A stretch of DNA of 64,000 nucleotides from Flavobacteriales bacterium (GCA_025451235.1 JANWKT010000020.1:48032-112031); one strand, 5' to 3'; counted from the first letter of the stretch, positions 24,665-64,000 are shown. Notes: a model not told the origin generated them from the letters alone. Translations and numbers: made by a program.

Positions 24665-24795
24665 AGAATCGTTGAATTGGTTGCTAAAATAAGGGTTTTA
24701 ATCATATAATGCAGTATTTGAATAAAAGATACAATCTGGTTAATATTTGGTCGAATAGAAATTTTACTTACCATTGTGAAGGTAAATTAATATTC

Positions 24796-35146: not shown

Positions 35147-36577
35147 TTAAATGTTGATCTTCTTTTCCAGCTCATCTACATAAGCTCTGAATCGCTTGTC
35201 AGTTTCCATTAGATTATTTACTGTTTTGCAGGCATGCAATACAGTAGCATGGTCTTTACCTCCGCAATGAGCTCCAATAGTAGCTAAAGAAGATTTGGTG
35301 TAGTTTTTGGCAAAATACATAGCAATTTGTCTTGCCTGAACCACTTCACGTTTACGTGTTTTGGATTTCATGAGTTCAATAGGTAGCTCAAAATAATCGC
35401 AAACCACTTTTTGAATGTAATCGATCGATACTTCACGGGCATTGTTCTTCACAAATTTATCGATCATCTTTTTAGCAAGATCAAGGGTAACCTCTTTCTT
35501 GTTAAGGGATGATTGGGCGATCAGGGAGATCAAAGCTCCTTCGAGTTCCCGGATATTGGTTGTGATACTATATGCCAGGTATTCGATTACATCCTTAGGT
35601 AATTCTATACCATCATTGTAAATTTTCTTTTCAAGGATGGCAATTCTTGTTTCCAACTCTGGAATTTGTAAATCAGCAGAAAGTCCCCATTTAAATCTGG
35701 AAAGAAGACGTTGTTCCATACCCTGCAATTCAACTGGTGGTTTGTCGGAACTCAAAATAAGTTGTTTGCCATTTTGGTGCAGGTGATTGAATATATGGAA
35801 GAACACATCCTGTGTTTTTTCTTTTCCGGCTAAATACTGTACATCATCTATAATTAAAACATCCACTAACTGGTAGAAATTCACAAAGTCGTTATTGCTC
35901 CCGCTCTTTACAGCATCAATGAACTGGTTAATGAATTTTTCAGAAGGTACGTAAAGTACCGTTTTGTTAGGGAAGTTTTTCTTGATCTCAATTCCAATTG
36001 CATGAAGCAGGTGGGTTTTACCCAAGCCAGTGCTTCCATAAACCATTAAAGGATTAAACGATGTTCCGCCTGGATTTTTAGCTACAGCATAGCCTGCAGA
36101 TCTGGCCAAACGATTACAATCGCCTTCAACGAAATTTTCAAAGGTATAATTAGGATTAAGGTTAGAGTCAATATTAACTTTTTTAAGCCCGGGAATAATA
36201 AATGGATTTTTTATTGATTTGTTTCCACCCAAATCAATAGGCATGTTTACTGTAGGATTTACTAATGCTTTTTTGTCTGTCGTTGGTAGTTTTACCGAGT
36301 AAGATTGTTTAGAATTTGTATGATTTTCCATAATAATACTGTATTCCAATCTGCCCTCTGGCCCCAGCTCTTTTTTCACTACTTTTTTTAATAAAGTAAT
36401 GTAGTGTTCTTCCAGCCATTCGTAAAAAAATTGGGAAGGAACTTGGATCGTCAGAACACTATCAATAAGCTTGAGCGGCTGTATTGGCTCAAACCAGGTT
36501 TTGTAGCTTTGGGGGCTTACGTTATCCCGGATAATGTTCAGACAGTTCTCCCATAAATCATTGTGGTTTTTAGCCAT
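35147..36577 (-). CDS. dnaA: Chromosomal replication initiator protein DnaA
   Basis: MAKNHNDLWENCL… N-terminus. Walker A YGSTGLGKTHLLHAIG. C-terminal DNA-binding helix …QIAMYFAKNYT…. Confidence 0.9.
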   Translation of the reverse strand: MAKNHNDLWENCLNIIRDNVSPQSYKTWFEPIQPLKLIDSVLTIQVPSQFFYEWLEEHYITLLKKVVKKELGPEGRLEYSIIMENHTNSKQSYSVKLPTTDKKALVNPTVNMPIDLGGNKSIKNPFIIPGLKKVNIDSNLNPNYTFENFVEGDCNRLARSAGYAVAKNPGGTSFNPLMVYGSTGLGKTHLLHAIGIEIKKNFPNKTVLYVPSEKFINQFIDAVKSGSNNDFVNFYQLVDVLIIDDVQYLAGKEKTQDVFFHIFNHLHQNGKQLILSSDKPPVELQGMEQRLLSRFKWGLSADLQIPELETRIAILEKKIYNDGIELPKDVIEYLAYSITTNIRELEGALISLIAQSSLNKKEVTLDLAKKMIDKFVKNNAREVSIDYIQKVVCDYFELPIELMKSKTRKREVVQARQIAMYFAKNYTKSSLATIGAHCGGKDHATVLHACKTVNNLMETDKRFRAYVDELEKKINI

Positions 36578-36628
36578 AATTTCACCTCCTTTTTTTTGAT
36601 CTGAAACATGTTTTCGCAACTCTGTTCG

Positions 36629-40736: not shown

Positions 40737-42155
40737 ATGGTTTTTAGCAGTATCATATTCCTGGCCTATTTTCTTCCTATCTTTTTGCTCCTCTATTTTA
40801 TTGTGGACAAAAAGTATAAGAATGGATTATTGCTCATAGGTAGTATTATTTTTTATAGCTGGGGAGCCCCTAAATTCATTTTCGTTATTCTGCTCACCAC
40901 CTTTATCGATTTCCACCTGGTAAAATTGATGGATTCAACCCAAAAGAAATTGCATAAAAGAATTTTATTGACCCTTTCCATTTCCATCAATGTAGGATTA
41001 CTCTTCTATTTTAAATATTGTAACTTTTTTATCGGTAACATCAATCGTGTCTTGGGCGTTGCCGGGGGTGGTGAGATCTCCTTGCTCAATGTGATCATGC
41101 CCATCGGGATCTCATTTTATACTTTCGAAACCATTACCTATGTAGTGGATGTGTATAGAAAAGTGCATAAGCCACTTAAAAAATTCTGGGACTATCAATT
41201 ATATATCATCCTCTTCCCCAAATTAATTGCCGGACCCATTATCCGGTATCATGACCTGGCCGACCAGATCACCGAACGTCCGGATAAAGTAGATGATAAA
41301 CTATTGGGATTTTATAGATTTGCTATTGGTCTGGGGAAAAAAGTAATTATTGCCAATTACCTGGGCGCTCAGGCCCAGCATATTTTTAATTGGGATTACC
41401 AACAATTAGATGCAGTGGGTGCATGGATGGGTGCATTATGTTTTACCTTCCAGATCTATTTTGATTTTGCAGGTTACAGTGATATGGCCATTGGTATTGG
41501 CAGAATGTTAGGATTTAAATTTCCCGAAAATTTCCATAACCCCTATACCGCTACTTCTATTACCGATTTTTGGAGAAGGTGGCATATTTCACTGGGCAAA
41601 TGGATGAAGAGTTATTTATACATTCCGCTTGGAGGAAACCGGGTAAAACCCGAAATACTGGTATACGTAAATTTATGCATCGTTTTCCTCATCTCAGGTT
41701 TCTGGCATGGAGCCATGTGGAGCTTTATTCTTTGGGGTGCTTACCACGGTATTTTCCTGGTGCTGGAAAGAGCTTTCTTGTTAAAAGTATATGATAAAAT
41801 AGGCAGAGTTCCTTCGATGATCATTACATTTATTATTGTGGTGGTGGGTTGGGTGCCTTTTAAGCTGGAAAGTGTTCGATTAAGCTGGCAATATATTAAA
41901 GCCATGTTTAGCTTTGAGGTAAGTGGCAAGTTCCATTGGGACCATGAATTTTATTTTTATTTTTTTCTGGCAGTTTTCTTTTCCTTCTTTACGGTTTCTA
42001 AATGGGGGCAAAAGATCCAGGATAGCATTTATGTAAAGGAATATGGAAATGTAAAACATGCCTTGGCAACAGTTATAAGTATTGCATTGATGATCGTATG
42101 TGTTGGTTTTATTGCGGCGAATGGATTTAACCCTTTTATTTATTTTAGGTTTTAG
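40737..42155 (+). CDS. MBOAT-family membrane O-acyltransferase (AlgI/DltB/PatA-like)
   Basis: Multi-TM protein with the conserved His in FWRRWHISLGKWMKSYLYIPLGGN. Confidence 0.85.
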   Translation: MVFSSIIFLAYFLPIFLLLYFIVDKKYKNGLLLIGSIIFYSWGAPKFIFVILLTTFIDFHLVKLMDSTQKKLHKRILLTLSISINVGLLFYFKYCNFFIGNINRVLGVAGGGEISLLNVIMPIGISFYTFETITYVVDVYRKVHKPLKKFWDYQLYIILFPKLIAGPIIRYHDLADQITERPDKVDDKLLGFYRFAIGLGKKVIIANYLGAQAQHIFNWDYQQLDAVGAWMGALCFTFQIYFDFAGYSDMAIGIGRMLGFKFPENFHNPYTATSITDFWRRWHISLGKWMKSYLYIPLGGNRVKPEILVYVNLCIVFLISGFWHGAMWSFILWGAYHGIFLVLERAFLLKVYDKIGRVPSMIITFIIVVVGWVPFKLESVRLSWQYIKAMFSFEVSGKFHWDHEFYFYFFLAVFFSFFTVSKWGQKIQDSIYVKEYGNVKHALATVISIALMIVCVGFIAANGFNPFIYFRF

Positions 42156-42167
42156 ACGAAAATTCAA

Positions 42168-43484
42168 ATGAAAATAGGGATCAAACATATTCTTTTAAGT
42201 ATTATCATGGTATTTCTGTTTCTACCATTGATACAGGAGAATTTTAATATTTCGAAGATACGACCTCTATCCGGAGATTATGTTCCTGCAGGTGACGTGC
42301 CCATTACCCGACATGGCTGGTTCAGCAAAAACTTCCAGGTTCAAAAAGAAAAGTTCCTTCACGATCATTTTGGATATCACAATACCTATATAAGATTACA
42401 TAACCAGATCGCCTTCCATTTATTTAAGAAGGCCAAAGCGAATGGAGTTGTGATCGGTAAGGAAAACTATCTATACGAGGAAAGATATATTGATGCATAC
42501 TATGGACAGGATTTTATTGGGGTGGATTCCATTCGCAAAAAAATGGTGATGGTTTCATTCCTGGCCGATACATTGAGAAAAATGAACAAAACTCTATTGT
42601 TGGTGTTTGCCCCTGGAAAGGGTTCTTTTTTCCCAGAATACATTCCTGAAAGTAAAAAAGCACCCAAGGGTATTACCAATATGGAAATTTATACGCGGTT
42701 TGCAAGGGAAATGGGTATACCCCATATTGATTTTCATACCTGGTTCATTCAGCAAAAAAATATTTCGCCATACCCCCTTGTTCCAAAATATGGTATTCAT
42801 TGGAGTCAATATGGAGCCATACTAGCCACTGATTCCATTTTAAAAACCATAGAGCAAACAAGAGGTATTGATATAGCCGACATTTACTGGACTCAATTGA
42901 CCACCGAAAAAGCAAAGGATTCGGATATCGATATTGAAAAGGGAATGAACCTTCTTTTTAAATTAAAGTCAGAGCATATGATGGCTTATCCGGAAGTATT
43001 GTTTGAAGATACTGTCGGAAAGGTGAAGCCTTCGGTTTTGGTGGTGGCTGATAGTTATTATTGGCAGATCTTTGCCATGGGTATTTCAAGCATTTTCGAC
43101 CGGTCGGATTTCTGGTATTATTTTAAGTCGGCCCATAGTCCGCGGTTCGATAAAACCAAAAAAATAGAAGATGTAGACGTCGTAGACGAAATCAATCGTC
43201 ATGAAGTGATCATTTTGATGTCGACAGATGTTCACTTACCCGAATTCGGATGGGATTTTATTGAAACCATGTTTGAATTTTATAAGGGTACTCTTCCAAG
43301 AGAAAAATTAGATCCTACTTATTACGACAAAATTGATGAAATGGTGGAATATATTCGAACAGACGCTATCTGGATGAAAAGTATTACCGAAAAAGCCGCA
43401 ACAAGAAAAATATCAGTCGACTCTATGTTATATATTGACGCCAAATGGAGTGTAGATGAGAATGAAAGGAAGAAGAAAAAATAA
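42168..43484 (+). CDS. AlgJ/AlgX-like periplasmic partner of the MBOAT protein (putative O-acetyltransferase)
   Basis: N-terminal TM anchor. GIHWSQYG resembles the D/G-x-HW motif of AlgJ/AlgX-type proteins. Sits immediately downstream of the MBOAT gene. Confidence 0.45.
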   Translation: MKIGIKHILLSIIMVFLFLPLIQENFNISKIRPLSGDYVPAGDVPITRHGWFSKNFQVQKEKFLHDHFGYHNTYIRLHNQIAFHLFKKAKANGVVIGKENYLYEERYIDAYYGQDFIGVDSIRKKMVMVSFLADTLRKMNKTLLLVFAPGKGSFFPEYIPESKKAPKGITNMEIYTRFAREMGIPHIDFHTWFIQQKNISPYPLVPKYGIHWSQYGAILATDSILKTIEQTRGIDIADIYWTQLTTEKAKDSDIDIEKGMNLLFKLKSEHMMAYPEVLFEDTVGKVKPSVLVVADSYYWQIFAMGISSIFDRSDFWYYFKSAHSPRFDKTKKIEDVDVVDEINRHEVIILMSTDVHLPEFGWDFIETMFEFYKGTLPREKLDPTYYDKIDEMVEYIRTDAIWMKSITEKAATRKISVDSMLYIDAKWSVDENERKKKK

Positions 43485-46697: not shown

Positions 46698-47345
46698 ATG
46701 AAAAGATACAGGAAGTTGATCTATATATTAATAGGAATTGTCATTGTGCCTTTCCTTTTTGTATTTGCATCAAATGCCATTATAAAAAAAACCACCCGCG
46801 ATAAAATATATAGTAATATTGAACATCTGCCAGTGAATGATATTGGTTTGGTGTTGGGTACCAGTAAATATACCCATGGAGGCCTTAATCAATATTATAG
46901 TTACCGGATGGAAGCAGCGGCTGAGTTATTTTTTGCCGGAAAGATCAAACATATCATTGTAAGTGGAGACAACCATGTAAATGGTTATAATGAACCGGAG
47001 CAAATGAAAGCTTCTTTGGTAAAGTTGGGTGTGCCTGCCGAAAAGATCACTTGTGATTATGCCGGATTGAGAACATTTGATTCGGTGGTAAGGCTAAAAA
47101 AGATCTTTCTCACGAACAAAGCCACCATCATTTCCCAAAAATTTCATCTGGAACGAGCATTGTTTATCGCCCAACATTATCATATTGATGCGGTGGGCTA
47201 TTGTTCAAAAGATGTAGGTGCCCAATATAATAAGACCACAAAATTCCGAGAACTCCTGGCACGTTCAAAAGCCGTGCTTGACTTATACGTTCTCGGCACC
47301 AAACCCAAACATTTAGGTACAGAAATTAAAATCAATATCCCATGA
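46698..47345 (+). CDS. SanA/YdcF (DUF218) family protein
   Basis: N-terminal TM helix. …HIIVSGDNHVNGYNEPEQMK…YAGLRTFDSVVR fits the DUF218 pattern. Confidence 0.7.
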   Translation: MKRYRKLIYILIGIVIVPFLFVFASNAIIKKTTRDKIYSNIEHLPVNDIGLVLGTSKYTHGGLNQYYSYRMEAAAELFFAGKIKHIIVSGDNHVNGYNEPEQMKASLVKLGVPAEKITCDYAGLRTFDSVVRLKKIFLTNKATIISQKFHLERALFIAQHYHIDAVGYCSKDVGAQYNKTTKFRELLARSKAVLDLYVLGTKPKHLGTEIKINIP

Positions 47346-49207
47346 ACAAACTATTTACCATCGCGTTATTTGCCATCACCATCACTACGACGGCCCAGGC
47401 TCCTCATAAACTACATTTTGCAGTTGCACCAGCAGGTTCGGCTAGTTTCAATGCGGTAGATGAAGGCCCCTGGTATGTAAATATCGAAAACCACGAGGCA
47501 GGGCAACAACTGAATAGCCAGGAAAAAATACGGATGGGTGAACTAAAAGCAAATACCAATTATCTCTTTCCGCATAAAAACTCAATGGAAATAAAAGCAG
47601 ATCGTGCTTTACCTGATCCGGTGATCAACAATTCCTTTATTGCCAATGCGGCTTCAGGAAGTGTGCCTATGGATAATTATATGGCCAATTCGGATAGCGG
47701 ATATATCACCTCGGTATCCAACACCCTTATACAGGTATACAGAGAAAATGGGGTACTCGTAAAATCCAGGACCTTACAGAGTTTTGCAACTTCATTGGGA
47801 TTGAATGGAATTAATAACGGCAAGTTCGATCCTAAAGTGATCTACGACCCGCAGGCGGATAGATTCATCGCTGTTATACTGAATGGTTTCAATTCTACGT
47901 ATAGCAAGATCATTGTGGCCTTCTCTCAAACCAACAGGCCCGATAGTACCTGGAATTTCTATACGCTTTCAGGAAACCCTTTAAGTGATACCACCTGGTT
48001 TGATTACCCGGCTGTTTCAATTACTGATGACGAATTATTCATTACCGGTAATCAATTAAAAGAAGGACAATCGTGGTTACTTGGGTTCAAGCAATCGATC
48101 ATCTGGCAAATTGATAAAGAGGATGGTTATAATGGAGATACATTGGATATGGACCTATGGTACAATATCAATTCAGGAGGTCGACCGATCAGGAATCTTC
48201 ATCCGGTAAAAGGCGGAGAAGACATTTATGGTCCTAAACAATATTTTTTGAGTAATAGAAATATATCCACATTAAATGATACGATTTTTGTTCTTAACAT
48301 TAATGATACCATTGGCGCACCAGGCACTCAGCTAAATGTAGATGTCCTCCAGGCGGATATCCCCTATGGCTTTCCTCCGAATGCATATCAGAAAGTAGCC
48401 GGTCAATACCTCGCTACCAATGACGGGAGGGTACTAGGTGGGTTTTACGAAGAAGGAAGGATCTACTTTGCCTCTAACTCTGTTGATACCTCCAATGGAC
48501 GTGCTGGAATATTCTTTGGGGAGATCACCGGAGTGGATACCGCCAACTATAATATCACCGGAACCATGATCTCGAATGATACCTTGGATTTCGGCTATCC
48601 TAACCTGTCATGGTGCGGTTCTTATGGAACACAAAGTAACCTCTATCTATCCTTTCTGCATTCAGGTCCCAACAGGTTCCCGGGTATATCCACTGTTTTG
48701 TATTCCAACAATGAATGGTCGAACCTAAAAACAGTAAGAGAGGGAACGGCCAATCTGCTGGCATTATCCGATTCGGTGGAAAGATGGGGAGATTATTTTG
48801 GGTCGCAACCTAAATACAATAATGATGGAGTGGTTTGGATCTGTGGCACCTTCGGCAATACAGGGAATGCCTATCGGGCATTCATTGCAGAATTATATAA
48901 TCCAATGGGAATTGAAATAGGAATAGAAGAAGAGAAACCAGCTTCCGCCAACACAAATAATAAAATATATCCAAATCCGGCGATGGATCTCACTAATGTT
49001 GAAATTGAATTGTTGCAGGATCGAAATGTAGAAATTTCCCTATATGATATCAACGGAAAAATGATCGCTATCCTTTATAAAGGGAAATTATATGCAGGAG
49101 TGAACAAAGTTCAATTCAATATCGGTCATTTATCAAATGGTAGTTATATATTGCATGCAATATCGGGGAACGAATCTATTTTAAGAAAGACCATTGTTAA
49201 AAACTGA
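47342..49207 (+). CDS. Secreted hypothetical protein with T9SS type-A CTD
   Basis: Signal peptide. C-terminal KIYPNPAMDLTNVEIELLQ…ISLYDINGKMI…GSYILHAISGNESILRKTIVKN. Confidence 0.7.
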   Translation: MNKLFTIALFAITITTTAQAPHKLHFAVAPAGSASFNAVDEGPWYVNIENHEAGQQLNSQEKIRMGELKANTNYLFPHKNSMEIKADRALPDPVINNSFIANAASGSVPMDNYMANSDSGYITSVSNTLIQVYRENGVLVKSRTLQSFATSLGLNGINNGKFDPKVIYDPQADRFIAVILNGFNSTYSKIIVAFSQTNRPDSTWNFYTLSGNPLSDTTWFDYPAVSITDDELFITGNQLKEGQSWLLGFKQSIIWQIDKEDGYNGDTLDMDLWYNINSGGRPIRNLHPVKGGEDIYGPKQYFLSNRNISTLNDTIFVLNINDTIGAPGTQLNVDVLQADIPYGFPPNAYQKVAGQYLATNDGRVLGGFYEEGRIYFASNSVDTSNGRAGIFFGEITGVDTANYNITGTMISNDTLDFGYPNLSWCGSYGTQSNLYLSFLHSGPNRFPGISTVLYSNNEWSNLKTVREGTANLLALSDSVERWGDYFGSQPKYNNDGVVWICGTFGNTGNAYRAFIAELYNPMGIEIGIEEEKPASANTNNKIYPNPAMDLTNVEIELLQDRNVEISLYDINGKMIAILYKGKLYAGVNKVQFNIGHLSNGSYILHAISGNESILRKTIVKN

Positions 49208-52700: not shown

Positions 52701-54431
52701 TTAATTCTTGAACACCGTAAAGAATCCTTTAAATGGTTCGTTTACTTTATCATCCACCACATAAAAATATACCCCGTCAACCACATCGGGTTTCCAGTCG
52801 TTTTTATATGACTTTTCATAATGTAACAAAGTTCCCCAGCGGTTATAGAACCAGACTTCATTTTCTGGATATTGCTCTATATTCTGTATGAAGAATATAT
52901 CATTCAATCCATCATCGTTGGCCGTGATCACATTAGGGATAATAATTGGACATTGAATCACAATCGTGACGGGCGTACTTGTTCCTGCCTTTTCACAATC
53001 ATCTTCAATATTTACATAATATACCGTGGTGGTACCCATAGTGGCGTTCGAAGTAGCCGTAGTATCACCTGTGGGATACCATGTATAATGATAGTTCCCA
53101 AACCCACCTGTTACAATCGGATTGAGTAATGGGGGAATTCCTCCAGGGCATAAGGTGGTGTCACCATCCATAATAGCAACTATTGGAATATAATCTTGTA
53201 TATACAGTTTACGGAAAAGAGTAATAAGACCCGTATCACATGGATTGGTAAAGCTCATGGACAAGATCAGGGTATCTGTTCCTTCATCTAATCCATCGGC
53301 ATTTGCTGTAATAATAATACTGTCGGCAAAAACACCCTGGGGTATGATCAATGTATTCACAATGGGATCATAATCGGATCCTTCAATTGCATTTCCACCT
53401 TTTATAATAAAAATGGTATCGGCAGAGCTGGTATCCTGGCGTGAAAAAATAAATACTCCTTGCTCACATCCTTCGGTAAAAACACTGTCAGGTGTAAATA
53501 TTCCACCTTCGATCGTACCACTGCTAAATTGTAATGTTGGAGTTGGAGGGCAATTGGTGACGTTAAACTGAAAATCGCGGGTATGGGTACCAATCAATAC
53601 TCCATTTCTATATTCATCACAACAAATACCTACTACAAACTGACCCAACTGGGTTGGAGTAAGCGTTAATATTCCGGTTACCGGATCAATAGCCAATGGA
53701 GGCGCCCCTGAAATGGGATCCAACGCGGTAAATGGTGGAATAAAAGTAATGGGGTTAAAGGGTGGTGCTGAGGTAATCTGAGGTTGTGAATTGAATGCAT
53801 CTGCACCAATATAGGGAGAGCAAATATAATATACCAATGAATCACCATCGGGGTCAGTGGCAGAATGATCAAAAACCAAGGGTTGATTAATACATAATGC
53901 TATAGGGGGAAAGTTCGTATACCTGGGACTGTTGTTACAAGAATCTTGAACAGGAACTGTTTCGTAATAGGTGGTTCCAGTATTCCCGGGATCCAAAATA
54001 TTGATGATCGAATTGTTTCTACAACATCTCTGATAAGCAAAAATATACCCTGTTGGTGAGACGGGCAGTGTTACAACGGTTTGATAAATGGCTTCCTCCA
54101 CACAAACACCGCTGGGGGCTATAAAGCAAGGATCGGTAGAAACGATCGGTAATACAATAGCTCCCGGAAATGGAATGGCCACCGTATCAATAAATAAGGG
54201 GCTGCCTGATCCATCCCAGATGCTTATATAGGCAGGATTATCATATGCGGCAGTTCCGGGATTACAATCGCGGTAAACTTTTAAGGTCAAACGATAGGTG
54301 TTGGGGCCTATGCAATCATAAATCAATTCACCTCCAATGATATGGGTCGCATTAGTACGAATCACCGATGAACTGAATAGCAACATGAAAAGGGCTATAC
54401 CAAGGAACCTTAATCGTTGAAGTTTTGCCAT
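52701..54431 (-). CDS. T9SS type-B sorting-domain (CHU_C/SprB-type CTD) protein with a Cys-rich N-terminal domain
   Basis: C-terminal IIPNVITANDDGLNDIFFIQNI…NRWGTLL… is the 'gliding motility-associated C-terminal domain'. The N-terminal …THIIGGELIYDC…YRDC…CC… domain is typical of this cargo class. Confidence 0.8.
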   Translation of the reverse strand: MAKLQRLRFLGIALFMLLFSSSVIRTNATHIIGGELIYDCIGPNTYRLTLKVYRDCNPGTAAYDNPAYISIWDGSGSPLFIDTVAIPFPGAIVLPIVSTDPCFIAPSGVCVEEAIYQTVVTLPVSPTGYIFAYQRCCRNNSIINILDPGNTGTTYYETVPVQDSCNNSPRYTNFPPIALCINQPLVFDHSATDPDGDSLVYYICSPYIGADAFNSQPQITSAPPFNPITFIPPFTALDPISGAPPLAIDPVTGILTLTPTQLGQFVVGICCDEYRNGVLIGTHTRDFQFNVTNCPPTPTLQFSSGTIEGGIFTPDSVFTEGCEQGVFIFSRQDTSSADTIFIIKGGNAIEGSDYDPIVNTLIIPQGVFADSIIITANADGLDEGTDTLILSMSFTNPCDTGLITLFRKLYIQDYIPIVAIMDGDTTLCPGGIPPLLNPIVTGGFGNYHYTWYPTGDTTATSNATMGTTTVYYVNIEDDCEKAGTSTPVTIVIQCPIIIPNVITANDDGLNDIFFIQNIEQYPENEVWFYNRWGTLLHYEKSYKNDWKPDVVDGVYFYVVDDKVNEPFKGFFTVFKN

Positions 54432-54512: not shown

Positions 54513-56213
54513 TCACGGATTTTTAAATATCATGAAGAAATCTTTAAATGGATCATTCACTTTATCGTCAACCACATAGTAATAAACTCCATCCGATAAA
54601 TGAGGGGTCCAGTCGTTCTTATAGGACTTGGCATAGTGCAGCAAGGTCCCCCATCGATTAAAGAACCACACCTCGTTCTCAGGATATTGATCAATATTCT
54701 GAATGATAAATGTATCGTTCAGTCCATCTTCATTGGCTGTAATAACATTGGGTATCACTATTGGACATTGGATCACGATTGTTACAGGCATGCTAGCAAT
54801 GGTTTTACCACAATCATCTTCAATATTTACATAATATACCGTGGTTTCACCCATAAATGCATTAATCGTGGCGGTTGTATCCCCTGTGGGGTACCATAAA
54901 TAATGGTAATTACCGAATCCCCCCGTGACGACGGGGTTCAATAAAGGAGGAGGCCCACCCCCCGGACAGAGCGTAGTATCCCCATCCATGAATGCACTCA
55001 TTGGAGTATAATCCTCCAGGTATAATGTTTTAAATATAGTATCTGTTCCGCATGGATTATCAAAGGTGATATAAATGGTTACGGTTTCTGTTCCCTCACC
55101 ATTCACTCCATCATCAAATGCAGAAATGATGATGCTATCCCTGAATTCTCCTTGTCCGATCACAATAAAATCAGGCACATCGGTATAGTCGGTTCCCTCG
55201 GTCGCCGAACCTCCGGTAAAGAAGAAAATTGTATCTACTGCATTGGAATCAGGTCGGGTGAAAAAATAAATGGCCTGCTGGCAACCCTCTACGAAAACTG
55301 AATCCGTAGTAATACTATCACCGTCAATCGTTCCTCCAGAAATTTGCAGGGCACTGGATTGAAAACTACCCGCCTCCAACATAACGCCTGAATCAAAAGC
55401 TGCATCACCTGCATCCGCCACTGCTATCTTCAAATGGTAGGTCTGATTACATTGTACTACAGCCATCGCTGTAAGTCTTACCGTAAACCCATCATACTGG
55501 CAATTGTTAAAACCAGGTTCAGCCACATTATCGTTATTTACATAATAAACGTTGTCTCCATTATCCCAATTGGGGTTGGCCGTTTCACAAGTAGCAGGTG
55601 TACCAAAAGCTCCGGAAACACCCAGGTTAATAGTATTAATAGCCACAGGAGTAGATGTTCCAGGGATGAGAGCTATATTTTCTGCTCCTAAGGAAAAAGG
55701 GCCACTAAAACCTGGACCACTGATAAAAAAGCCAAATACATCGTTAAATCCTGAACAAGTATATTCGTTATACTCTTCGGAACAGAATACATAATTGAAT
55801 CGGATAGTGTCACCTGCTGGCACGAAGTCAAACTCCAATACGGCTTTGTTAAAGGTAGTATTACTGCATAAAGTGTTCAAATCGCCATCAGAACCAGCAT
55901 CTGCTGTGGGTGGTAGGCTAAAACTTCCTGAATTATTTGGTCCTAGCGCTTCATTAATATCCCCCGTTGCCAGGATCATACCGTTGCCAATACCTATGCT
56001 TCCATTTCCCTGTGTAAAAGTACCAATCTGGTTATTGAGAGAGGATCCTGGATTTCCGTTAAAAGTAATATTAGAAATAACCACCCCTTGGCCTGCCAAT
56101 ACGTTCTGTACAATCTGGGTTGGAGTTAAAGCCCCGCTTACTGCGATGGGTTGAGCCCATAGGGTGATTCCTCCGGTTATTACAAAGAGTAGAAGTAAAT
56201 AAATTTTCTTCAT
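54513..56213 (-). CDS. Choice-of-anchor-L domain + T9SS type-B sorting-domain protein
   Basis: N-terminal …FDFVPAGDTIRFNYVF.SEEY.EY…FNDVFGFFISGPG…YHLKIAVADAGDAAFDSGVMLEAGSF matches the choice-of-anchor-L pattern. The C-terminal 190 aa are ~80% identical to the 52701 gene. Confidence 0.8.
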   Translation of the reverse strand: MKKIYLLLLFVITGGITLWAQPIAVSGALTPTQIVQNVLAGQGVVISNITFNGNPGSSLNNQIGTFTQGNGSIGIGNGMILATGDINEALGPNNSGSFSLPPTADAGSDGDLNTLCSNTTFNKAVLEFDFVPAGDTIRFNYVFCSEEYNEYTCSGFNDVFGFFISGPGFSGPFSLGAENIALIPGTSTPVAINTINLGVSGAFGTPATCETANPNWDNGDNVYYVNNDNVAEPGFNNCQYDGFTVRLTAMAVVQCNQTYHLKIAVADAGDAAFDSGVMLEAGSFQSSALQISGGTIDGDSITTDSVFVEGCQQAIYFFTRPDSNAVDTIFFFTGGSATEGTDYTDVPDFIVIGQGEFRDSIIISAFDDGVNGEGTETVTIYITFDNPCGTDTIFKTLYLEDYTPMSAFMDGDTTLCPGGGPPPLLNPVVTGGFGNYHYLWYPTGDTTATINAFMGETTVYYVNIEDDCGKTIASMPVTIVIQCPIVIPNVITANEDGLNDTFIIQNIDQYPENEVWFFNRWGTLLHYAKSYKNDWTPHLSDGVYYYVVDDKVNDPFKDFFMIFKNP

Positions 56214-59165: not shown

Positions 59166-59867
59166 CTATAAATAATTCTTCAACTCCGCTAAATGATGAA
59201 TAGAAGGATGCTCCAAACCTTCTACATCTTTTTGGCCATGGTTATACCAAACAGCATGTAACCCTGCATTGGCGGCCCCTTTTACATCGGTTTCGAGATC
59301 ATCACCGATCATTACCGAAGAATGAGCATCGGCATTGGCAATTTTTAAAGCATAAGCAAAAATTTTAGGTTCAGGTTTTCTCTTTCCTACTTTTTCACTG
59401 GTGATTACTTTGCTGAAATATTGTTCAATCTTAGAATTGCGCATTTTCAACGATTGAACCTCTTGAAAACCATTGGTAATGATATGTAAAGGATACTTTC
59501 CGGATAAATAATCCAACAACTCCGCCACTCCTGGCATTAAAGCTGTTTTGGTAGGGCTAATATCTACATATCTTTTCCCCAGTTTTTTTGAGAGCTGACG
59601 ATCAACGATCCCAAAGTCTTTTAGCGTTAAATAGAAACGTTGGTGTCTCAGTAGGTCCTTTTTCATTTGGTTTTTGCGGTACATGTCCCAACAATATTCA
59701 TTGCAGCGGAAATAGACAGGTAGAAATTTTTCCAACGTCAAACCAATATCTGTCAACTTAAACTCCTCGTACAAGTCGGTGATCGCATCTTTTGAATTGG
59801 TTTCGAAATCCCAGAGGGTATGATCGAGATCAAAAAAGATATGTTGTATGGTTTGGCCTTTAAACAA
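59166..59867 (-). CDS. HAD-superfamily hydrolase, subfamily IA (YjjG-like nucleotidase); start uncertain
   Basis: Motif I (HIFFDLDHTLWD) and a C-terminal GDD motif. The longest frame (to 59939, GTG) overlaps the upstream gene by 80 bp. A TTG at 59867 gives the usual short N-terminus. Confidence 0.65.
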   Translation of the reverse strand: MFKGQTIQHIFFDLDHTLWDFETNSKDAITDLYEEFKLTDIGLTLEKFLPVYFRCNEYCWDMYRKNQMKKDLLRHQRFYLTLKDFGIVDRQLSKKLGKRYVDISPTKTALMPGVAELLDYLSGKYPLHIITNGFQEVQSLKMRNSKIEQYFSKVITSEKVGKRKPEPKIFAYALKIANADAHSSVMIGDDLETDVKGAANAGLHAVWYNHGQKDVEGLEHPSIHHLAELKNYL

Positions 59868-60342
59868 CCTTAATGGAATTAAAGATCTCAAGGATAGCCG
59901 ATCCGAAGCCGGCATAAATAAATGACCATATGACCACACTGATAAATAAGTATAGAAATATTTTCTTTTTGTTCTTATAATACCTCATGGCTATAAAACA
60001 ACCAATGGGGATTGAAAGCAGGATGGGGGTGAGGATCGCTATACCTGCTAATCCGAAACGGCCTTTCAACCTTACCCATCTCCTTGTTCTCTTGGAGAAC
60101 TTTTTTCTGGGCTTTTTCCTTTTAAACCAACCTGTTTTTCTTTTGAACCAATTCCAGATACGAAGGATACCAGAACTTAGATACATAAAAACAATGATCC
60201 CAAATGTGCCGGAGGCTATTCCAAATAAAACGGATTCCCAAAAAGATAATTTTTCGCTGAGAATAAAAAAGGGAACCGTAATAGCAAATTTAAAGGATGC
60301 TATTAAAACCGCAATAACCAGTTCGAGCCAGGTAGTTTCCAT
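59860..60342 (-). CDS. Small hypothetical membrane protein (4 predicted TM helices) with a basic loop KRKKPRKKFSKRTRR
   Basis: ORF flanked tightly by upp, whose stop overlaps this start, and by the HAD gene. Confidence 0.5.
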   Translation of the reverse strand: METTWLELVIAVLIASFKFAITVPFFILSEKLSFWESVLFGIASGTFGIIVFMYLSSGILRIWNWFKRKTGWFKRKKPRKKFSKRTRRWVRLKGRFGLAGIAILTPILLSIPIGCFIAMRYYKNKKKIFLYLFISVVIWSFIYAGFGSAILEIFNSIKVV

Positions 60343-60992
60343 TATAATTTTACTCCATAAGCAAGGTCCCCGGCGTCTCCCAATCCTGGAATAATATAGG
60401 ACTTGGCATTGAGTTCAGGGTCTACTGCTCCAATCCAATAACTAACGTCAGCTGGTAAATGATGACGGGTATGGTTCAACCCGTCTTCGCTAGCGATTAC
60501 AGAAACAATATGGGTGCTTTTTGGCATTCCTCTTCTCTCGGTAAGGATCTTCCAGCAACTTACCATGCTCATTCCTGTAGCTAGCATAGGATCGCAAAGG
60601 ATCAAAACCTTATCCTGTAAAGAAGGTGCCGACATATATTCCACCTCGATATGGAACTTAATATCCGTATCATGTTTTCTATAAGCCGAAATGATGGCAT
60701 TTTCTGCCTGATCAAATGTTTCCAGTAAACCTTCGTGCAAGGGTAACCCTGCCCGCAAAATTGTTCCAAGAACAATTTGATCATCACAAATACTTTGAGT
60801 GGCAATTCCTAACGGAGTTTGCACTTCCATTGTAGTATAATTCAACTTCTTGCTGATCTCATATCCCATATGAAGACCTATTCTGCGCAAATTATTTCTA
60901 AATCTCAGGCTGTCCTTCTGCACCTCGATATTTCGAAGCTCTGCAATATAATTATTGACGATGGTATTATCGTTGGAAAAAAGGTGAATCAT
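60342..60992 (-). CDS. upp: Uracil phosphoribosyltransferase
   Basis: …ILRAGLPL…, PRPP-binding VLILCDPMLATGMS, and C-terminal IIPGLGDAGD. Confidence 0.9.
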   Translation of the reverse strand: MIHLFSNDNTIVNNYIAELRNIEVQKDSLRFRNNLRRIGLHMGYEISKKLNYTTMEVQTPLGIATQSICDDQIVLGTILRAGLPLHEGLLETFDQAENAIISAYRKHDTDIKFHIEVEYMSAPSLQDKVLILCDPMLATGMSMVSCWKILTERRGMPKSTHIVSVIASEDGLNHTRHHLPADVSYWIGAVDPELNAKSYIIPGLGDAGDLAYGVKL

Positions 60993-61060: not shown

Positions 61061-61945
61061 TTAAATTTTAAATTTTTTATACTCGTTCAGGTAATAGTCA
61101 ACATCCTTGCCACCAAAGCCTTTATAGAAACGTGCCACAGACTCGGTATTGGATCCTCCAAAGTCAAAAAAATCGCATTTGTTGATATGATCATTGATCT
61201 CTGAGTCGATCAAAAAATGCATGGCTCCTGAATTCTTTCCCTCATTCGTTACAGCACCTTTGTAATAAGTAACGGTTTTTCTCCATGTTAAAAAATATCC
61301 GATGGCTAACAAAATTTCTCCATCATATACACCGGTAATATGTCCATCGTTTTTTTGGAGCCAATGTATCATCAGTTTTCGGAGCAAAACATAAGAGTCC
61401 TCATTTATATTTTCTATTTGGTCCCCTTTATTTTCTTTAAAGGTGTTGATCACCAGGTCTACATCCGATACTTTTTTTATTTCTATGCCCTGTTTTACAG
61501 CTTTTTGTCGATTCCTCTTTGTATTCTCATTATATTCTTTCCGGACATCTTCCATATTTTTACCGGCCAATCCAAGTTGCTGGTATTTCCACAAGGTAGG
61601 TTTTATTAAATTTCCTTCAGCGGGTTGGAAATAAAACATTTTTACCCACCAGGAATGTTGGATCATCTCCTCCAACATCTTCTGTTGAATCTGAGGATCC
61701 TCCTCATTTCCAAAAATACCCAAAGGCCCCATGAACTGGGGGTGCCAGGAATAAGTAAGTCCGAGTTTTTTCTTTTGGGGAAGGGCCAGCACCCATTGGT
61801 AATCATTATAGATGATCCCAACCCATCGATCGCAAGCCATACAAATAGAATCGTATAAGCCATAAATATTCCCATTCTTACCTGAATGGATACAAGCATC
61901 CCATTTTGTTCTATTGATTTTTTCAAATGGAACTACCTGGATCAT
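61061..61945 (-). CDS. FemAB/Acetyltransf_6-like acyltransferase-fold protein
   Basis: C-terminal …GAMHFLIDSEIN…DFFDFGGS resembles the FemAB-family ending (…yDFGG). Confidence 0.4.
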   Translation of the reverse strand: MIQVVPFEKINRTKWDACIHSGKNGNIYGLYDSICMACDRWVGIIYNDYQWVLALPQKKKLGLTYSWHPQFMGPLGIFGNEEDPQIQQKMLEEMIQHSWWVKMFYFQPAEGNLIKPTLWKYQQLGLAGKNMEDVRKEYNENTKRNRQKAVKQGIEIKKVSDVDLVINTFKENKGDQIENINEDSYVLLRKLMIHWLQKNDGHITGVYDGEILLAIGYFLTWRKTVTYYKGAVTNEGKNSGAMHFLIDSEINDHINKCDFFDFGGSNTESVARFYKGFGGKDVDYYLNEYKKFKI

Positions 61946-63252
61946 TCCGAAACCGATTTTACCATCCTTTCAAAACCATCTTTCCAGCCAGCATATTCTG
62001 GCCATGGAGCAAATGAGCGGTCATGCCATACAAATACAAACAAGCCTGACACTTTTTTCACTTCTTCCATGATATCGATCATGGAGTTAGTAGCCGAAAT
62101 GGCATCCATTTTTTTATAGTCCCGGTACTGAGTATCCATTACCTGGAATGGAACAATCATCAAAGAAGTGATCTCTTCAGCTTCCAAGTCATAGAAAGGA
62201 TAGGGTTCGGCAATGCAAGCTCTGAAACCAGGACGGTCGGGGTAGCCCATGCTATAATCCTTTTTAATTCCACAACTGATCAAGTGGCGGTAAGTATCAG
62301 GAAATTTTAATTTGATAAAATGCTGTCTGCTATGTCGTACTCTTTTTCTCAGAATTTTACTCAAGGCCCTGATCTCAAGTTTCAATATGGCCACATCGGT
62401 GTTCGAGGCATACGATGGATGAATTCCCACCTTACCGCAAAATCTCAGTTTCCTGATCAGTTTCTTAAATGAGATGGAAGTTATATCCAATCCATGGTCA
62501 TGCTCCCCCTTACTTGCACATAAGGCAAAATAACGAAGGGGAATGCCATAATTGGTGCATACTTTTTTCTGGAATTTATAATAATTAAAAGGGTCCTTTT
62601 TGTTTCCGGTGATCACATGGGTCCTTTCCATGGCCGATTTGAATTTAAACCTCAAAATATCCTTTACATAGGCCCCAAACGTTCTGATCGACCCTTTTCC
62701 TCTATACGCATAGCCATTGTCTACATCAACTGTGGCCAATGCTCTGAAACTTTTCTCGGGAAACTCAAACTCAGGAAATTTTGAAGATAGTTTATCTTTT
62801 ACTTCCTCAGCCCAATAATGCACCATGGGTTTCAAATAAAAATCATGCTGGATCGAAAATACTTTGTCAGGAACAAATCTGCCATATTGATCGGTTTCCT
62901 GAGATAAGTATTCTTCATAACGGCTCACCATATAAAAAACAGCCGCCAATGGATCATAAGTAAAGTCCTTACTTCCTTCCACCGGAAAAATAGCCTTGCT
63001 GTATTGACCATCGGTAATTCCAGGAAATTCAGGTTTGATCTTTAATTGAAAAAGAAATCCGGAGGGAACAATATGCAGTCCTTGCTCAAGTGCATCATTG
63101 CTATAATTGATCTTGGCTCCTTTGGTAGATAAAAAATAGCCTACATTATCCGTATAATTTACAGGCATCTCCAGTTTCAAAACATGGTTAAAGATCACCT
63201 GAGCTGCAAATTGCAGCCTGGGAGTCATATGTTGGCTATAGATAAGGATCAC
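61942..63252 (-). CDS. Polysaccharide-deacetylase-like protein (divergent)
   Basis: TVDVDNG (DxD), HPSY and RQHF motifs are reminiscent of the NodB-type metal-binding triad. Overlaps its neighbours by 4 bp and 0 bp. Confidence 0.35.
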   Translation of the reverse strand: MILIYSQHMTPRLQFAAQVIFNHVLKLEMPVNYTDNVGYFLSTKGAKINYSNDALEQGLHIVPSGFLFQLKIKPEFPGITDGQYSKAIFPVEGSKDFTYDPLAAVFYMVSRYEEYLSQETDQYGRFVPDKVFSIQHDFYLKPMVHYWAEEVKDKLSSKFPEFEFPEKSFRALATVDVDNGYAYRGKGSIRTFGAYVKDILRFKFKSAMERTHVITGNKKDPFNYYKFQKKVCTNYGIPLRYFALCASKGEHDHGLDITSISFKKLIRKLRFCGKVGIHPSYASNTDVAILKLEIRALSKILRKRVRHSRQHFIKLKFPDTYRHLISCGIKKDYSMGYPDRPGFRACIAEPYPFYDLEAEEITSLMIVPFQVMDTQYRDYKKMDAISATNSMIDIMEEVKKVSGLFVFVWHDRSFAPWPEYAGWKDGFERMVKSVSE

Positions 63253-63253
63253 T

Positions 63254-64000
63254 TTAGCGAGTAAATTGTTTGACTGTTTGCTTTAAATATAAGGTAAAGT
63301 TAAAATTAATTAGATTCCGTGCCTTATTGTTTTTAATGTCATTTTCAATCACCCTATATGCTTTTTTCAAGTCAATCTTGAATATGGGTACTCCGTTCAA
63401 TTCCATTTTTACCAAGGCTCCTGCATCCTGCAACGGTTTTTCGAGGCTATTCAGCACAGGAATATATCCATTCTTCTTGGCGTATATCTTAAATTCTTTT
63501 TTTTCGGTAAGTCCTTTCAAGTCGGTAAATTCGAAGGGATACAGTTTTGTTTCCCGGTACCCCACATTTAATTGTTGTTCTACATAATGGGCAAAAGTAA
63601 ATCCGTAATATAGTTCCAGGTCGATAATAAGTAAGGTACCTCCTATTTTGTATAAATAATCAAAAACTGAATGAGGTCCGAATGTATCCGTATTGGAATA
63701 AGTGGCCTCAGTTATTCTATTCGACTCCTCACCGAAAATGAAAAAAGAATGAAAAGGATCGTTCGTCCTTGTGCATTCATTTTTTTTGAACAATGTAAAT
63801 GCCTGTTTCGACAATCCACCGGTTTCGGGTTTCAGCGTTCTCATATCCACCTTGGTTCCAGGTTTCAATGTGTTTACAAAACCAGGTATGAGCAGATTCC
63901 CAGCGGATAAATGATCCTTGAAGGAAGATATGAACGCCTGGGGCTTAAATTCTCCCTCCTTCCGAATGGTGGCCAGCATCAAACGTGAAACATCCGACAC
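63254..64000 (-). CDS. AAC(3)-family N-acetyltransferase-fold protein; partial, N-terminus beyond the window end
   Basis: …TRTNDPFHSFFIFGEES…HSVFDYLYKIGGTLLIIDLELYYGFTFAHYVEQ parallels the AAC(3) blocks (RS.HP..SFAA.G…SPL..LYELDG.VLLLGV…NTS.HLAEY). Confidence 0.55.
   Translation of the reverse strand: MSDVSRLMLATIRKEGEFKPQAFISSFKDHLSAGNLLIPGFVNTLKPGTKVDMRTLKPETGGLSKQAFTLFKKNECTRTNDPFHSFFIFGEESNRITEATYSNTDTFGPHSVFDYLYKIGGTLLIIDLELYYGFTFAHYVEQQLNVGYRETKLYPFEFTDLKGLTEKKEFKIYAKKNGYIPVLNSLEKPLQDAGALVKMELNGVPIFKIDLKKAYRVIENDIKNNKARNLINFNFTLYLKQTVKQFTR

Follow-up and report, generated by a model that had tools for sequence, protein, structure and literature searches.

On balance, the three-gene cassette at the end of the window (the whole 64,000-nucleotide stretch of Flavobacteriales DNA that was analysed) probably corresponds to the Vim half of the Bacteroidota Wbp/Vim pathway, in a form particular to its lineage. 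In this pathway a UDP-diacetamido-uronic acid has its 2-N-acetyl group replaced by Ser or Gly, and the resulting sugar links type IX secretion system (T9SS) cargo to LPS (Veith et al. 2020, PMC7468200). The published role of VimE and VimA is deacetylation and then aminoacylation of a glycan precursor (PMC7468200), which agrees with the order of reactions that an earlier sequence-only reading had proposed for the cassette while leaving the system unnamed. The second and third genes (g2 and g3) look like members of this known type. The first gene (g1), which encodes an AAC(3)-fold acyltransferase, is the new element, an extra partner with no known counterpart in the Porphyromonas/Tannerella pathway.

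Layout of the cassette

The three co-directional genes were found as ORFs on the minus strand (Table 1), as the sequence-only reading had described. They are real genes. A 253-kb NCBI contig encodes full-length proteins with 100 % identity to them (P0121, 262 aa; P0001, 436 aa; P0158, 294 aa), homologues at 50–80 % identity are numerous, and each product matched one Pfam family above the gathering score. Tight coupling had also been claimed, and g2 and g3 do overlap by 4 bp (ATGA), but the g1/g2 junction, given as 0, is TAA-A-GTG with a 1-nt spacer. Comparison with P0121 placed the first 14 codons of g1 beyond the window edge, and the GTG 'start' at 64000 is an artefact of that edge. The cassette had been expected to continue upstream, but just these 14 codons are missing and the relatives then show a divergent sigma-54-type regulator. 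No sigma-54 promoter (GG-N10-GC) was found upstream of g1 in the relatives, and consensus scans for promoters and terminators performed no better than shuffles. Signal peptides were absent from all three products, which should therefore act in the cytoplasm.

Table 1. Coordinates of the cassette genes and their conserved neighbours in the window
Feature	Coordinates	Strand	Remarks
g1, AAC(3)-fold N-acyltransferase	63254..64000	minus	248 of 262 codons inside the window
g2, VimE-like amino-sugar N-deacetylase	61942..63252	minus	436 aa
g3, VimA-like FemAB-type (tandem GNAT) aminoacyl transferase	61061..61945	minus	294 aa
upp, uracil phosphoribosyltransferase	60342..60992	minus	68 nt after g3; conserved downstream neighbour
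Small membrane protein (160 aa)	59860..60342	minus	conserved neighbour
YjjG-family HAD pyrimidine nucleotidase	59166..59939	minus	conserved neighbour; true start probably near 59867

The g2 product is a relative of VimE

A DUF7033 region at the N-terminus of g2 is followed by a CE4-type barrel. Neither single-sequence nor profile searches of the PDB with g2 gave a match, and the CE4 fold was revealed solely by structure prediction (AlphaFold pLDDT 91) and fold search. The DxD and His motifs from which a NodB-like deacetylase had been proposed were borne out, with D176-x-D178, H278 and H410 invariant in 27 homologues on a CE4/NodB-type fold. The sole NCBIfam match of g2 was NF053580 (VimE, UDP-2,3-diacetamido-2,3-dideoxy-alpha-D-glucuronate deacetylase), at 121.8 bits (E 2.7e-35). 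Residues 100–414 of 436 aligned to model positions 89–410 of 431, a near full-length match between proteins of the same size and architecture. Since the equivalog cut-off is 440 bits, g2 counts as a relative of VimE rather than as an equivalog certified by this model. Among the 27 homologues, the best match to the model reached only E 9.2e-57.

The g3 product has the fold of tRNA-dependent aminoacyl transferases

g3 matched Pfam Acetyltransf_6 (E 2.3e-6, 28.3 bits, cut-off 22). Phmmer gave a match to FemA (1lrz, E 0.004), while the profile search returned marginal FemX matches only (E 0.26). The AlphaFold model (pLDDT 94.6) was most similar in Foldseek to Sbb17 (9wqw, E 1.9e-13, TM 0.70), with Sba18, FemA and FemX (TM about 0.7) and MprF also matched; E values for Sbb17, FemA and FemX ranged from 1e-13 to 1e-10. 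All of the best structural matches are aminoacyl-tRNA-dependent transferases. The FemAB-like character and DFGG ending noted from the sequence were upheld by these matches and by the invariance of DFGGS (261–265). In FemX the counterpart of this C-terminal D-F/L-G-G block is a DLGG block, with which it aligns, and the surrounding region, with its R/K-F-x-K-G-F/Y block, aligns with FemA.

g3 shares the tandem-GNAT fold with FemX/FemA and Sbb17/Sba18 at 11–16 % identity, and the coiled-coil insert of FemA is absent from it. Sbb17 and Sba18 aminoacylate an amino-sugar-containing substrate, as proposed for g3, but the acceptor of g3 is presumably the amine of a UDP-sugar, in contrast to the peptide or streptothrisamine acceptors of those enzymes. 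A match to TIGR03019 (pepcterm_femAB) was obtained for g3 at E 0.014 and for 17 of 27 homologues, the best at E 3.2e-6, and VimA has the same weak pattern of GNAT and pepcterm_femAB signatures (PMC7468200). No VimA model was among the NCBIfam matches of g3. The term VimA-like refers here to the fold, the weak family signature and the adjacency to a VimE-like gene, and not to a comparison with the P. gingivalis VimA sequence. PEP-CTERM/XrtA exopolysaccharide loci likewise pair a FemAB-like protein (TIGR03019) with a CE4 deacetylase (TIGR03006) in a system of sortase-type anchoring, a likeness already pointed out for the Vim proteins by Veith et al. (PMC7468200). However, the scores obtained here were far under the equivalog cut-offs and an exosortase/PEP-CTERM context is absent.

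The g1 product is an AAC(3)-fold acyltransferase in a Vim-like context

That g1 has the AAC(3) fold, as the sequence-only reading had recognized from its conserved blocks, was supported by a match to Pfam Antibiotic_NAT (PF02522; E 9.2e-14, 52 bits, cut-off 25), by the presence of the FTFAHYVE block, and by a family profile that found YokD (2nyg, E 1.5e-8), BA2930 (3e4f, 1.4e-4) and FrbF (3sma, 1.5e-3). The Thr-x-x-His-x-x-Glu motif, common to this fold family, has the same spacing in g1 as the catalytic triad of AAC-VIa (Thr186/His189/Glu192; PMC5884680), and its His aligns with those of BA2930 and YokD. T149, H152 and E155 were invariant in alignment A1. Invariance of FTFxHxxE in loci L007–L078 was by construction, because the pattern served to find them; conservation was therefore re-checked on an independent HMMER set, in which the Thr, His and Glu were retained in 112, 119 and 121 of 122 library representatives. 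As judged from this motif, g1 is predicted to be catalytically intact.

Known members of this family include aminoglycoside resistance enzymes, from which g1 differs in several respects. Against the NCBIfam AAC_3 model (NF033082) it scored 18.5 bits (E 0.001), far under the equivalog cut-off of 270. In AAC-VIa the drug is bound by Asp183 (PMC5884680); the residue three before the catalytic Thr, its equivalent by spacing only, is Tyr in g1 and variable in the family (N, H, D, R and others). In addition, g1 lies in a chromosomal operon with glycan-tailoring genes. Members of the PF02522 family are not restricted to aminoglycosides, since FrbF can N-acetylate a nucleotide-linked amine.

In a neighbour-joining (NJ) tree, the Bacteroidota homologues of g1 formed one small clade in which a vimE- or vimA-like gene usually adjoins; this adjacency was scattered throughout the clade and synteny was kept down to 35–40 % identity. 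Members of the sister clade lie in nonulosonic-acid (diamino-sugar) loci, adjoining NeuB. An AAC(3)-fold gene within a diamino-sugar (pseudaminic or legionaminic acid) locus has a parallel in Campylobacter jejuni, where the flagellin glycosylation locus contains Cj1296/Cj1297, described as 'aminoglycoside N3'-acetyltransferase' (PMC3025981, PMC13130089); the likeness considered here is one of fold and locus type. The family members of Campylobacter and Lysinibacillus adjoin NeuB, a DUF4910 aminopeptidase-like protein, an AMP-binding enzyme and a methyltransferase; unlike g1, they fall in another NJ clade, never stand beside VimE/VimA-like genes and belong with a different sugar class.

Conservation of the locus

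The sequence-only reading had been staked on co-occurrence of the three genes elsewhere, and the order g1, g2, g3 was found in eight other full loci (L001, L002, L007, L009, L016, L020, L083 and L084), down to 50 % identity in g2. A VimA-like gene next to a VimE-like gene was seen in these eight and in L081 and L082, where the pair is adjacent without g1. Partial combinations comprised g1 with g2 alone (L003–L006, L079/L080) and g1 with g3 alone (L011–L013). In L015 and L017, a UDP-GlcNAc 2-epimerase family gene (WbpI type) lies directly upstream of the VimE-like gene, a feature that favours a link to the Wbp route. In more distant loci, g1 homologues adjoin an FkbH-domain protein, or a carrier protein together with a DltA-like adenylation enzyme; the neighbours there suggest that these lineages use donors different from acetyl-CoA.

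The surroundings of the locus consist of housekeeping genes and do not form a variable polysaccharide cluster; no glycosyltransferase or flippase gene was adjacent to the cassette. The upp product (Pfam UPRTase, E 6.7e-40; NCBIfam NF001097, 200.6 bits, cut-off 114) is also encoded after the VimA-like gene in L001, L002, L081/L082 and L083, and an ORF of 216–220 aa, identified by position only, takes its place in L007, L009 and L016. The small membrane protein had 55–76 % identity to its counterparts in L016 and L009, and in more distant loci follows the VimA-like gene directly (31–38 % identity in L015, L017 and L020). Its Pfam matches were weak (Sm_multidrug_ex, E 0.001; LPG_synthase_TM, E 0.007), and it is a possible fourth member of the module. 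The HAD nucleotidase (NCBIfam TIGR02254, 192.3 bits, cut-off 159.9) is 43.5 % identical to its HAD counterpart in L020, which is likewise encoded after the small membrane protein.

Relation to the Wbp/Vim pathway and type IX secretion

In Porphyromonas gingivalis and Tannerella forsythia, both T9SS-bearing Bacteroidota, a CE4-type deacetylase of about 430 aa is likewise found with a FemAB/GNAT-type transferase of about 300 aa, and vimE and vimA are adjacent in P. gingivalis (PGN_1055/PGN_1056; Veith et al. 2026, PMC13086638). VimE as the only NCBIfam relative of g2, and the VimA-type combination of signatures in g3, add to this likeness. Because g3 has the fold of a FemA/FemX-type aminoacyl-tRNA-dependent transferase, g2 and g3 together look like the Vim half of the pathway. 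There are also differences. In the window the vimE-like gene precedes the vimA-like gene, whereas the order in P. gingivalis is presumably the reverse, with vimA before vimE. No vimF-type glycosyltransferase stands beside the pair, g2 is well under the VimE cut-off, and the pair comes after a gene for an AAC(3)-fold protein, a type of enzyme absent from the published pathway.

That the organism has a T9SS and CTD cargo is evident from four cargo proteins encoded in the window, with Por_Secre_tail (15424–16590 and 47342–49207) or CHU_C domains (52701–54431 and 54513–56213). No wbpA, wbpB, wbpE, wbpD, vimF-like glycosyltransferase or porU gene was found in the 64 kb or beside the cassette in the relatives examined. 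A Pfam scan of 33 window proteins, a subset of the ORFs, gave no Wbp-type dehydrogenase, oxidoreductase, DegT-type aminotransferase or hexapeptide acetyltransferase, and the sole aminotransferase (24709–25989) was of class I/II. Since the Wbp, vimF-like and porU genes were not found nearby, the upstream part of the pathway and the link to the sortase are assumed. Vim homologues are not mentioned in the Cytophaga and Flavobacterium papers citing the pathway.

Proposed mechanism and alternative explanations

The substrate of the cassette would be a cytoplasmic, nucleotide-activated 2,3-diamino-2,3-dideoxy-uronic acid. In the preferred reading, g1 would acylate the 3-amine, with acetyl, before g2 acts, so that gene order would equal reaction order. 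In P. gingivalis the 3-N-acylation step belongs to the hexapeptide-repeat enzyme WbpD, and that g1 performs it in place of WbpD is our best guess, a tentative one. The VimE-like deacetylase g2 would then strip the 2-N-acetyl group, and the VimA-like g3 would attach an amino acid to the freed amine, with aminoacyl-tRNA as the probable donor. The free alpha-amine of this amino acid may serve as the acceptor through which the T9SS sortase joins the C-terminus of CTD cargo to the LPS tether.

Two other placements of g1 in the reaction sequence were considered. It is unlikely, though worth weighing, that g1 acts last, N-acetylating the added amino acid on its alpha-amine. The product, an N-(N-acetyl-aminoacyl) amino sugar, would be either a normal constituent of LPS or glycan or a linking sugar whose cap prevents it from accepting cargo. 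Such substituents occur in O-antigens, all three enzymes would fit one chemically sensible sequence that needs no replacement of WbpD, and g1 adjoins a VimA-like gene alone in L011–L013. VimE/VimA homologues are also carried by O-antigen clusters of bacteria outside the T9SS organisms (PMC7468200). However, the sortase could not use a capped amine as acceptor, although type A CTD cargo is present in this organism; g1 is paired equally often with a VimE-like gene alone, and the locus lies among housekeeping genes. Still less likely, g1 may re-acylate the amine freed by g2 with a non-acetyl acyl or aminoacyl group, either in parallel to g3, which would give two alternative 2-N substituents, or replacing g3 in some lineages. 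Bacteroidales MAGs in which the g1–g2 pair has no adjacent VimA-like gene are consistent with this. Before the pair in L079/L080 come genes for an amino-acid adenylation enzyme (TIGR01733, 311.8 bits), a carrier protein of 88 aa and a GNAT, and an FkbH-domain protein, a glyoxalase/epimerase-like protein and a TylF methyltransferase are among the neighbours in L015, L020, L014 and L013. Against it, acyl-activation genes are absent beside the trio in the window and in close relatives, VimA-like genes may exist elsewhere in the L003 and L079 genomes, and with acetyl-CoA as donor g2 and g1 would form a futile cycle.

Neither peptidoglycan tailoring nor drug resistance was retained as an explanation. 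The sequence-only reading had allowed for a peptide stem as the target, and deacetylation of the glycan strand combined with addition of a bridge amino acid to the stem would suit CE4 and FemXAB enzymes, which are best known from that setting; two members of alignment A3 also weakly matched the FemX NCBIfam model. This is nevertheless very improbable, given that g2 has no signal peptide and matches only a nucleotide-sugar deacetylase in NCBIfam, that no mur/fem context is adjacent, and that the FemX and FemA sequence matches of g3 are marginal. Interpeptide bridges are not known from Bacteroidota. For g1 as a true aminoglycoside 3-N-acetyltransferase resistance gene standing beside glycan genes by chance, there are the PF02522 match and the JGI label 'aminoglycoside 3-N-acetyltransferase' on homologues, but the AAC_3 score, the occurrence of Tyr, His or Asn at the position equivalent by spacing to Asp183, the far-reaching synteny with Vim-like genes, the absence of mobile-element genes and the uniform base composition leave this the most remote of the explanations considered.

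Implications for anchor-sugar diversity

The sugar that links T9SS cargo is known chemically in three oral species only, the third of which, Prevotella intermedia, has a different sugar, and the authors of the work on that species expect several biosynthetic routes across the phylum (PMC11969387). The locus described here indicates retention of the VimE/VimA core in environmental Flavobacteriales-type bacteria, and the conserved extra acyltransferase and the variant loci with carrier-protein acyl activation are candidates for variation in the anchor sugar. A broader and distinctly speculative possibility is that AAC(3)-fold enzymes form an unrecognised class of N-acyl or N-aminoacyl transferases that diversifies the sugar between T9SS cargo and LPS, with the enzyme of the window clade supplying the 3-N-acyl group without WbpD and its homologues in other Bacteroidota working with FkbH-type or DltA/DltC-type carrier-protein modules. 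If so, an AAC(3)-fold enzyme may even replace the tRNA-dependent VimA in those other Bacteroidota, so that an aminoacylated or glyceroylated anchor sugar would be made independently of tRNA. The whole clade that metagenome annotations label 'aminoglycoside 3-N-acetyltransferase' probably belongs to glycan biosynthesis and ought to be left out of counts of antibiotic resistance.

Layout and boundaries of the cassette

The sequence-only reading had placed three tightly coupled minus-strand genes at 61061–64000, and this observation is confirmed: ORFs for an AAC(3)-fold N-acyltransferase (g1), a VimE-like deacetylase (g2) and a VimA-like FemAB-type transferase (g3) are co-directional and fill the final 2.9 kb of the window. 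Of the overlaps claimed, the 4-bp one at the g2/g3 junction (ATGA) stands, but that of 0 bp between g1 and g2 is a spacer of one base (TAA-A-GTG). Proteins 100 % identical to all three are encoded on one 253-kb NCBI contig, where full-length g1 is 262 aa, so only the first 14 g1 codons are missing from the window. GC content is uniform across the window (~0.39) and thus gives no hint of an island.

A continuation upstream of g1 had been expected and was not borne out. Close relatives have a divergent Response_reg/Sigma54_activat regulator at this place, which indicates that the cassette starts with g1; two further loci have a divergent ORF matching the regulator by size and position. The regulator–g1 intergenic region of the window's clade contains a common TATTTTGC...GAATATAnTAATTTTACC element, and a GG-N10-GC sigma-54 promoter was sought in this region and not found. 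Nor does a glycosyltransferase or flippase gene, also sought as a neighbour, adjoin the cassette in close relatives in which the operon start is visible.

Coordinates of features in the window and in loci of relatives (L numbers)
Feature	Locus	Position	Strand	Remarks
g1	Window	63254–64000	minus	ORF, partial at window end
g2	Window	61942–63252	minus	ORF, 436 aa
g3	Window	61061–61945	minus	ORF, 294 aa
upp	Window	60342–60992	minus	Downstream of g3, co-directional
160-aa membrane protein	Window	59860–60342	minus	Downstream of g3
YjjG-family HAD pyrimidine nucleotidase	Window	59166–59939	minus	TIGR02254, 192 bits, cut-off 159.9
Por_Secre_tail (type A CTD)	Window	15424–16590; 47342–49207		Pfam
CHU_C (type B T9SS C-terminal domain)	Window	52701–54431; 54513–56213	minus	Two in tandem, ~570 aa each
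dnaA	Window	35147–36619	minus	
MBOAT membrane O-acyltransferase, then AlgX-like SGNH protein	Window	40737–43484	plus	
Response_reg + Sigma54_activat regulator	L001; L002; L083; L084	8760–9938; 4581–5759; 3962–5137; 3907–5079		Divergent from g1; family scan
392-aa ORF	L007; L009	4343–5521; 4734–5912		Divergent
Small membrane protein (~150–160 aa)	L015; L017; L020	8697–9152; 8678–9148; 9000–9464		3' of VimA-like gene
Gene set 5' of AAC(3)-like gene	L015; L020; L014; L013	3918–7771; 3591–5962; 3877–5955; 2976–5966		
~330-aa ORF	L015; L017	6776–7771; 6768–7754		Between AAC(3)-like and VimA-like genes
Adenylation enzyme, carrier protein and GNAT with AAC(3)-like/VimE-like pair	L079/L080	4775–9308		Bacteroidales MAG
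Firmicutes/Campylobacter g1-family members and neighbours	L043; L049	4904–8040; 4859–10355		
196-aa hexapeptide-repeat transferase	L081	1155–1745	minus	

Homology and fold of the encoded proteins

g1 falls in Antibiotic_NAT (Pfam PF02522; E 9.2e-14, 52 bits, cut-off 25), and a profile of 20 homologues matches solved YokD (E 1.5e-8), BA2930 (1.4e-4) and FrbF (1.5e-3). The catalytic residues of AAC-VIa are Thr186, His189 and Glu192 (PMC5884680). The g1 motif T149-x-x-H152-x-x-E155 has all three invariant in the homologue alignment; among the 122 near-full-length matches of an unbiased HMMER search, run over 1.84 billion representatives, Thr, His and Glu are conserved in 112, 119 and 121, respectively. 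With an NCBIfam AAC_3 score of 18.5 bits (cut-off 270), g1 does not qualify as a certified resistance enzyme. The position matched by spacing to the drug-binding Asp183 is Tyr in g1 and variable across the family. Its subfamily is small, with 30 representatives at E ≤ 1e-30 and 179 at E ≤ 1e-10 (HMMER).

PDB sequence searches with g2 gave no match, and Pfam identified only DUF7033 (residues 98–185). The single NCBIfam match was NF053580, 'UDP-2,3-diacetamido-2,3-dideoxy-alpha-D-glucuronate deacetylase VimE' (E 2.7e-35, nearly full length; 121.8 bits, below the equivalog cut-off of 440), which was also the only NCBIfam family matched by diverse g2 homologues (27 of 27). The homologue alignment shows no variation at D176, D178, H278, R309, H311 and H410, and the Asp/His residues among them are putative CE4 motifs.

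g3 matches Pfam Acetyltransf_6 (28.3 bits, cut-off 22) and, weakly, FemAB and TIGR03019 (pepcterm_femAB); the latter is matched by 17 of 27 homologues (best E 3.2e-6). FemA was matched at E 0.004 in a single-sequence search and FemX at E 0.26 in a profile search, with the invariant DFGGS block aligning with DLGG of FemX and RFYKGFG with FKKGY of FemA. The structure model (pLDDT 94.6) is nearest to Sbb17/Sba18 (E 2e-13, TM 0.62–0.70), FemA and FemX, then MprF domains, its closest structures being aminoacyl-tRNA-dependent transferases. The AAC(3)-fold, deacetylase-like and FemAB-like calls of the sequence-only reading are thus supported.

Proposed relation to the Wbp/Vim pathway

The signature of g2 and g3 is the same as that given by Veith et al. 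for VimE, a CE4 member, and VimA, which matches N-acetyltransferase and pepcterm_femAB models (PMC7468200). According to the published proposal, VimE takes off the 2-N-acetyl group and VimA attaches Ser in Porphyromonas gingivalis or Gly in Tannerella forsythia (PMC7468200). These roles match, and lend support to, the order of deacetylation then aminoacylation postulated earlier; a published precedent for the g2–g3 system therein unnamed does exist. Four T9SS cargo proteins are encoded in the window, and directly 5' of the VimE-like gene of L015 and L017 lies a gene of the UDP-GlcNAc 2-epimerase family (WbpI type). Together with the VimE/VimA signature, this leads us to read g2 and g3 as the putative Vim module of the source organism, g2 being a sub-equivalog VimE relative. 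No wbp, vimF or porU genes were detected among 33 window proteins scanned against Pfam.

The block of upp, membrane protein and HAD gene also lies 3' of the VimA-like gene in L001, L002, L081/82 and L083. ORFs of like size and order occur there in L009 and L016, with the membrane protein and HAD confirmed by BLAST. L015, L017 and L020, with no upp at that place, have a homologous small membrane protein (31–38 % identity) directly 3' of the VimA-like gene, followed in L020 by the HAD gene. This protein, with only weak Pfam similarity (Sm_multidrug_ex and LPG_synthase_TM), may be an unrecognised Vim-module member; upp and the nucleotidase may be simply conserved neighbours.

Elsewhere, the cumulative GC skew reaches its lowest values in the bins at 38–48 kb and in the final bin, and with dnaA present the window may be close to the origin of chromosome replication. 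The MBOAT/AlgX-like genes form a pair for polysaccharide O-acetylation and have no relation to the cassette.

Distribution of the trio and inserted genes

The g1–g2–g3 order, whose recurrence bears on the proposed linkage, was met again in eight other full loci: four metagenome contigs (L001, L002, L083 and L084; g2 identity 50–79 %) and four GTDB species genomes (L007, L009, L016 and L020), mostly Flavobacteriales or Bacteroidota MAGs. L008 stops within g2. Other arrangements were g1–g2 only (Bacteroidales MAGs L003–6 and L079/80), g1–g3 only (L011–13), g2...g1...g3 with inserted genes (L015 and L017) and g2–g3 without g1, a widespread lineage (L081/82). A neighbour-joining tree united the Bacteroidota g1 homologues in a single clade, with Vim-adjacent members spread through most of it; members of the Firmicutes/Campylobacter clade never adjoined g2- or g3-like genes. 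The VimE-like family, for which a word-limited search gave 5779 clusters, is large and the g1 family small, which indicates that g1 is an accessory partner of a widespread g2–g3 core.

Several loci carry additional genes. A DltA-like amino-acid adenylation enzyme, an 88-aa carrier protein and a small GNAT lie 5' of the AAC(3)-like/VimE-like pair in L079/L080, which no VimA-like gene adjoins; this points to a way of making an aminoacylated sugar without tRNA. A recurrent set in L015, L020, L014 and L013 comprises a 101–117-aa ORF without family match, a ~555-aa FkbH-domain protein and a 134–136-aa glyoxalase/methylmalonyl-CoA-epimerase-like protein, with a TylF O-methyltransferase added in L013, and hints at a glyceryl-type acyl donor. 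The ~330-aa ORF of L015 and L017 may be a second deacetylase, given its HIHPH motif and weak match to TIGR03006 (XrtA-system polysaccharide deacetylase; E 1.6e-4).

Candidate roles of g1

The published Wbp/Vim pathway has no AAC(3)-fold enzyme, whereas the window cassette has g1. In the clade sister to the Bacteroidota one (Campylobacter, Lysinibacillus), the neighbouring genes encode a methyltransferase, a NeuB-type nonulosonic acid synthase, an AMP-binding enzyme and an aminopeptidase-like protein (DUF4910/DUF2172); L043 and L049, where a second paralogue of the AAC(3)-like gene is also present, are nonulosonic-acid modification loci. C. jejuni Cj1296/7, annotated as aminoglycoside N3'-acetyltransferase, lies within the flagellin glycosylation locus (PMC3025981, PMC13130089). 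These contexts, with the association of the Bacteroidota clade with VimE/VimA, suggest that g1 is a candidate diamino-sugar N-acyltransferase.

Such an enzyme could act at three points. Tentatively preferred, as a possibility short of even chances, is that g1 would 3-N-acetylate the sugar before g2 acts, which is the WbpD step in P. gingivalis; the genes would then stand in the order of the reactions. N-acetylation by g1 of the amino acid already added also fits the chemistry, as does re-acylation in which the freed 2-amine receives a different group. Re-acylation draws some support from the FkbH-domain, epimerase-like and TylF genes flanking the g1 homologue (L015, L020, L013 and L014) and from the adenylation enzyme, carrier protein and GNAT of L079/80; however, the acyl-activation genes of these distant loci are absent beside the trio in the window's clade. 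Separately, the L081 lineage, without an AAC(3)-like gene, has a hexapeptide-repeat transferase of WbpD size and type ~6 kb from its VimE/VimA-like pair, which bears on replacement of WbpD and may be coincidence.

We infer the function of the cassette from homology, fold and gene context only. Two features are new relative to the published pathway: a conserved partner of AAC(3) fold, and the variants with acyl-activation genes that related loci show.
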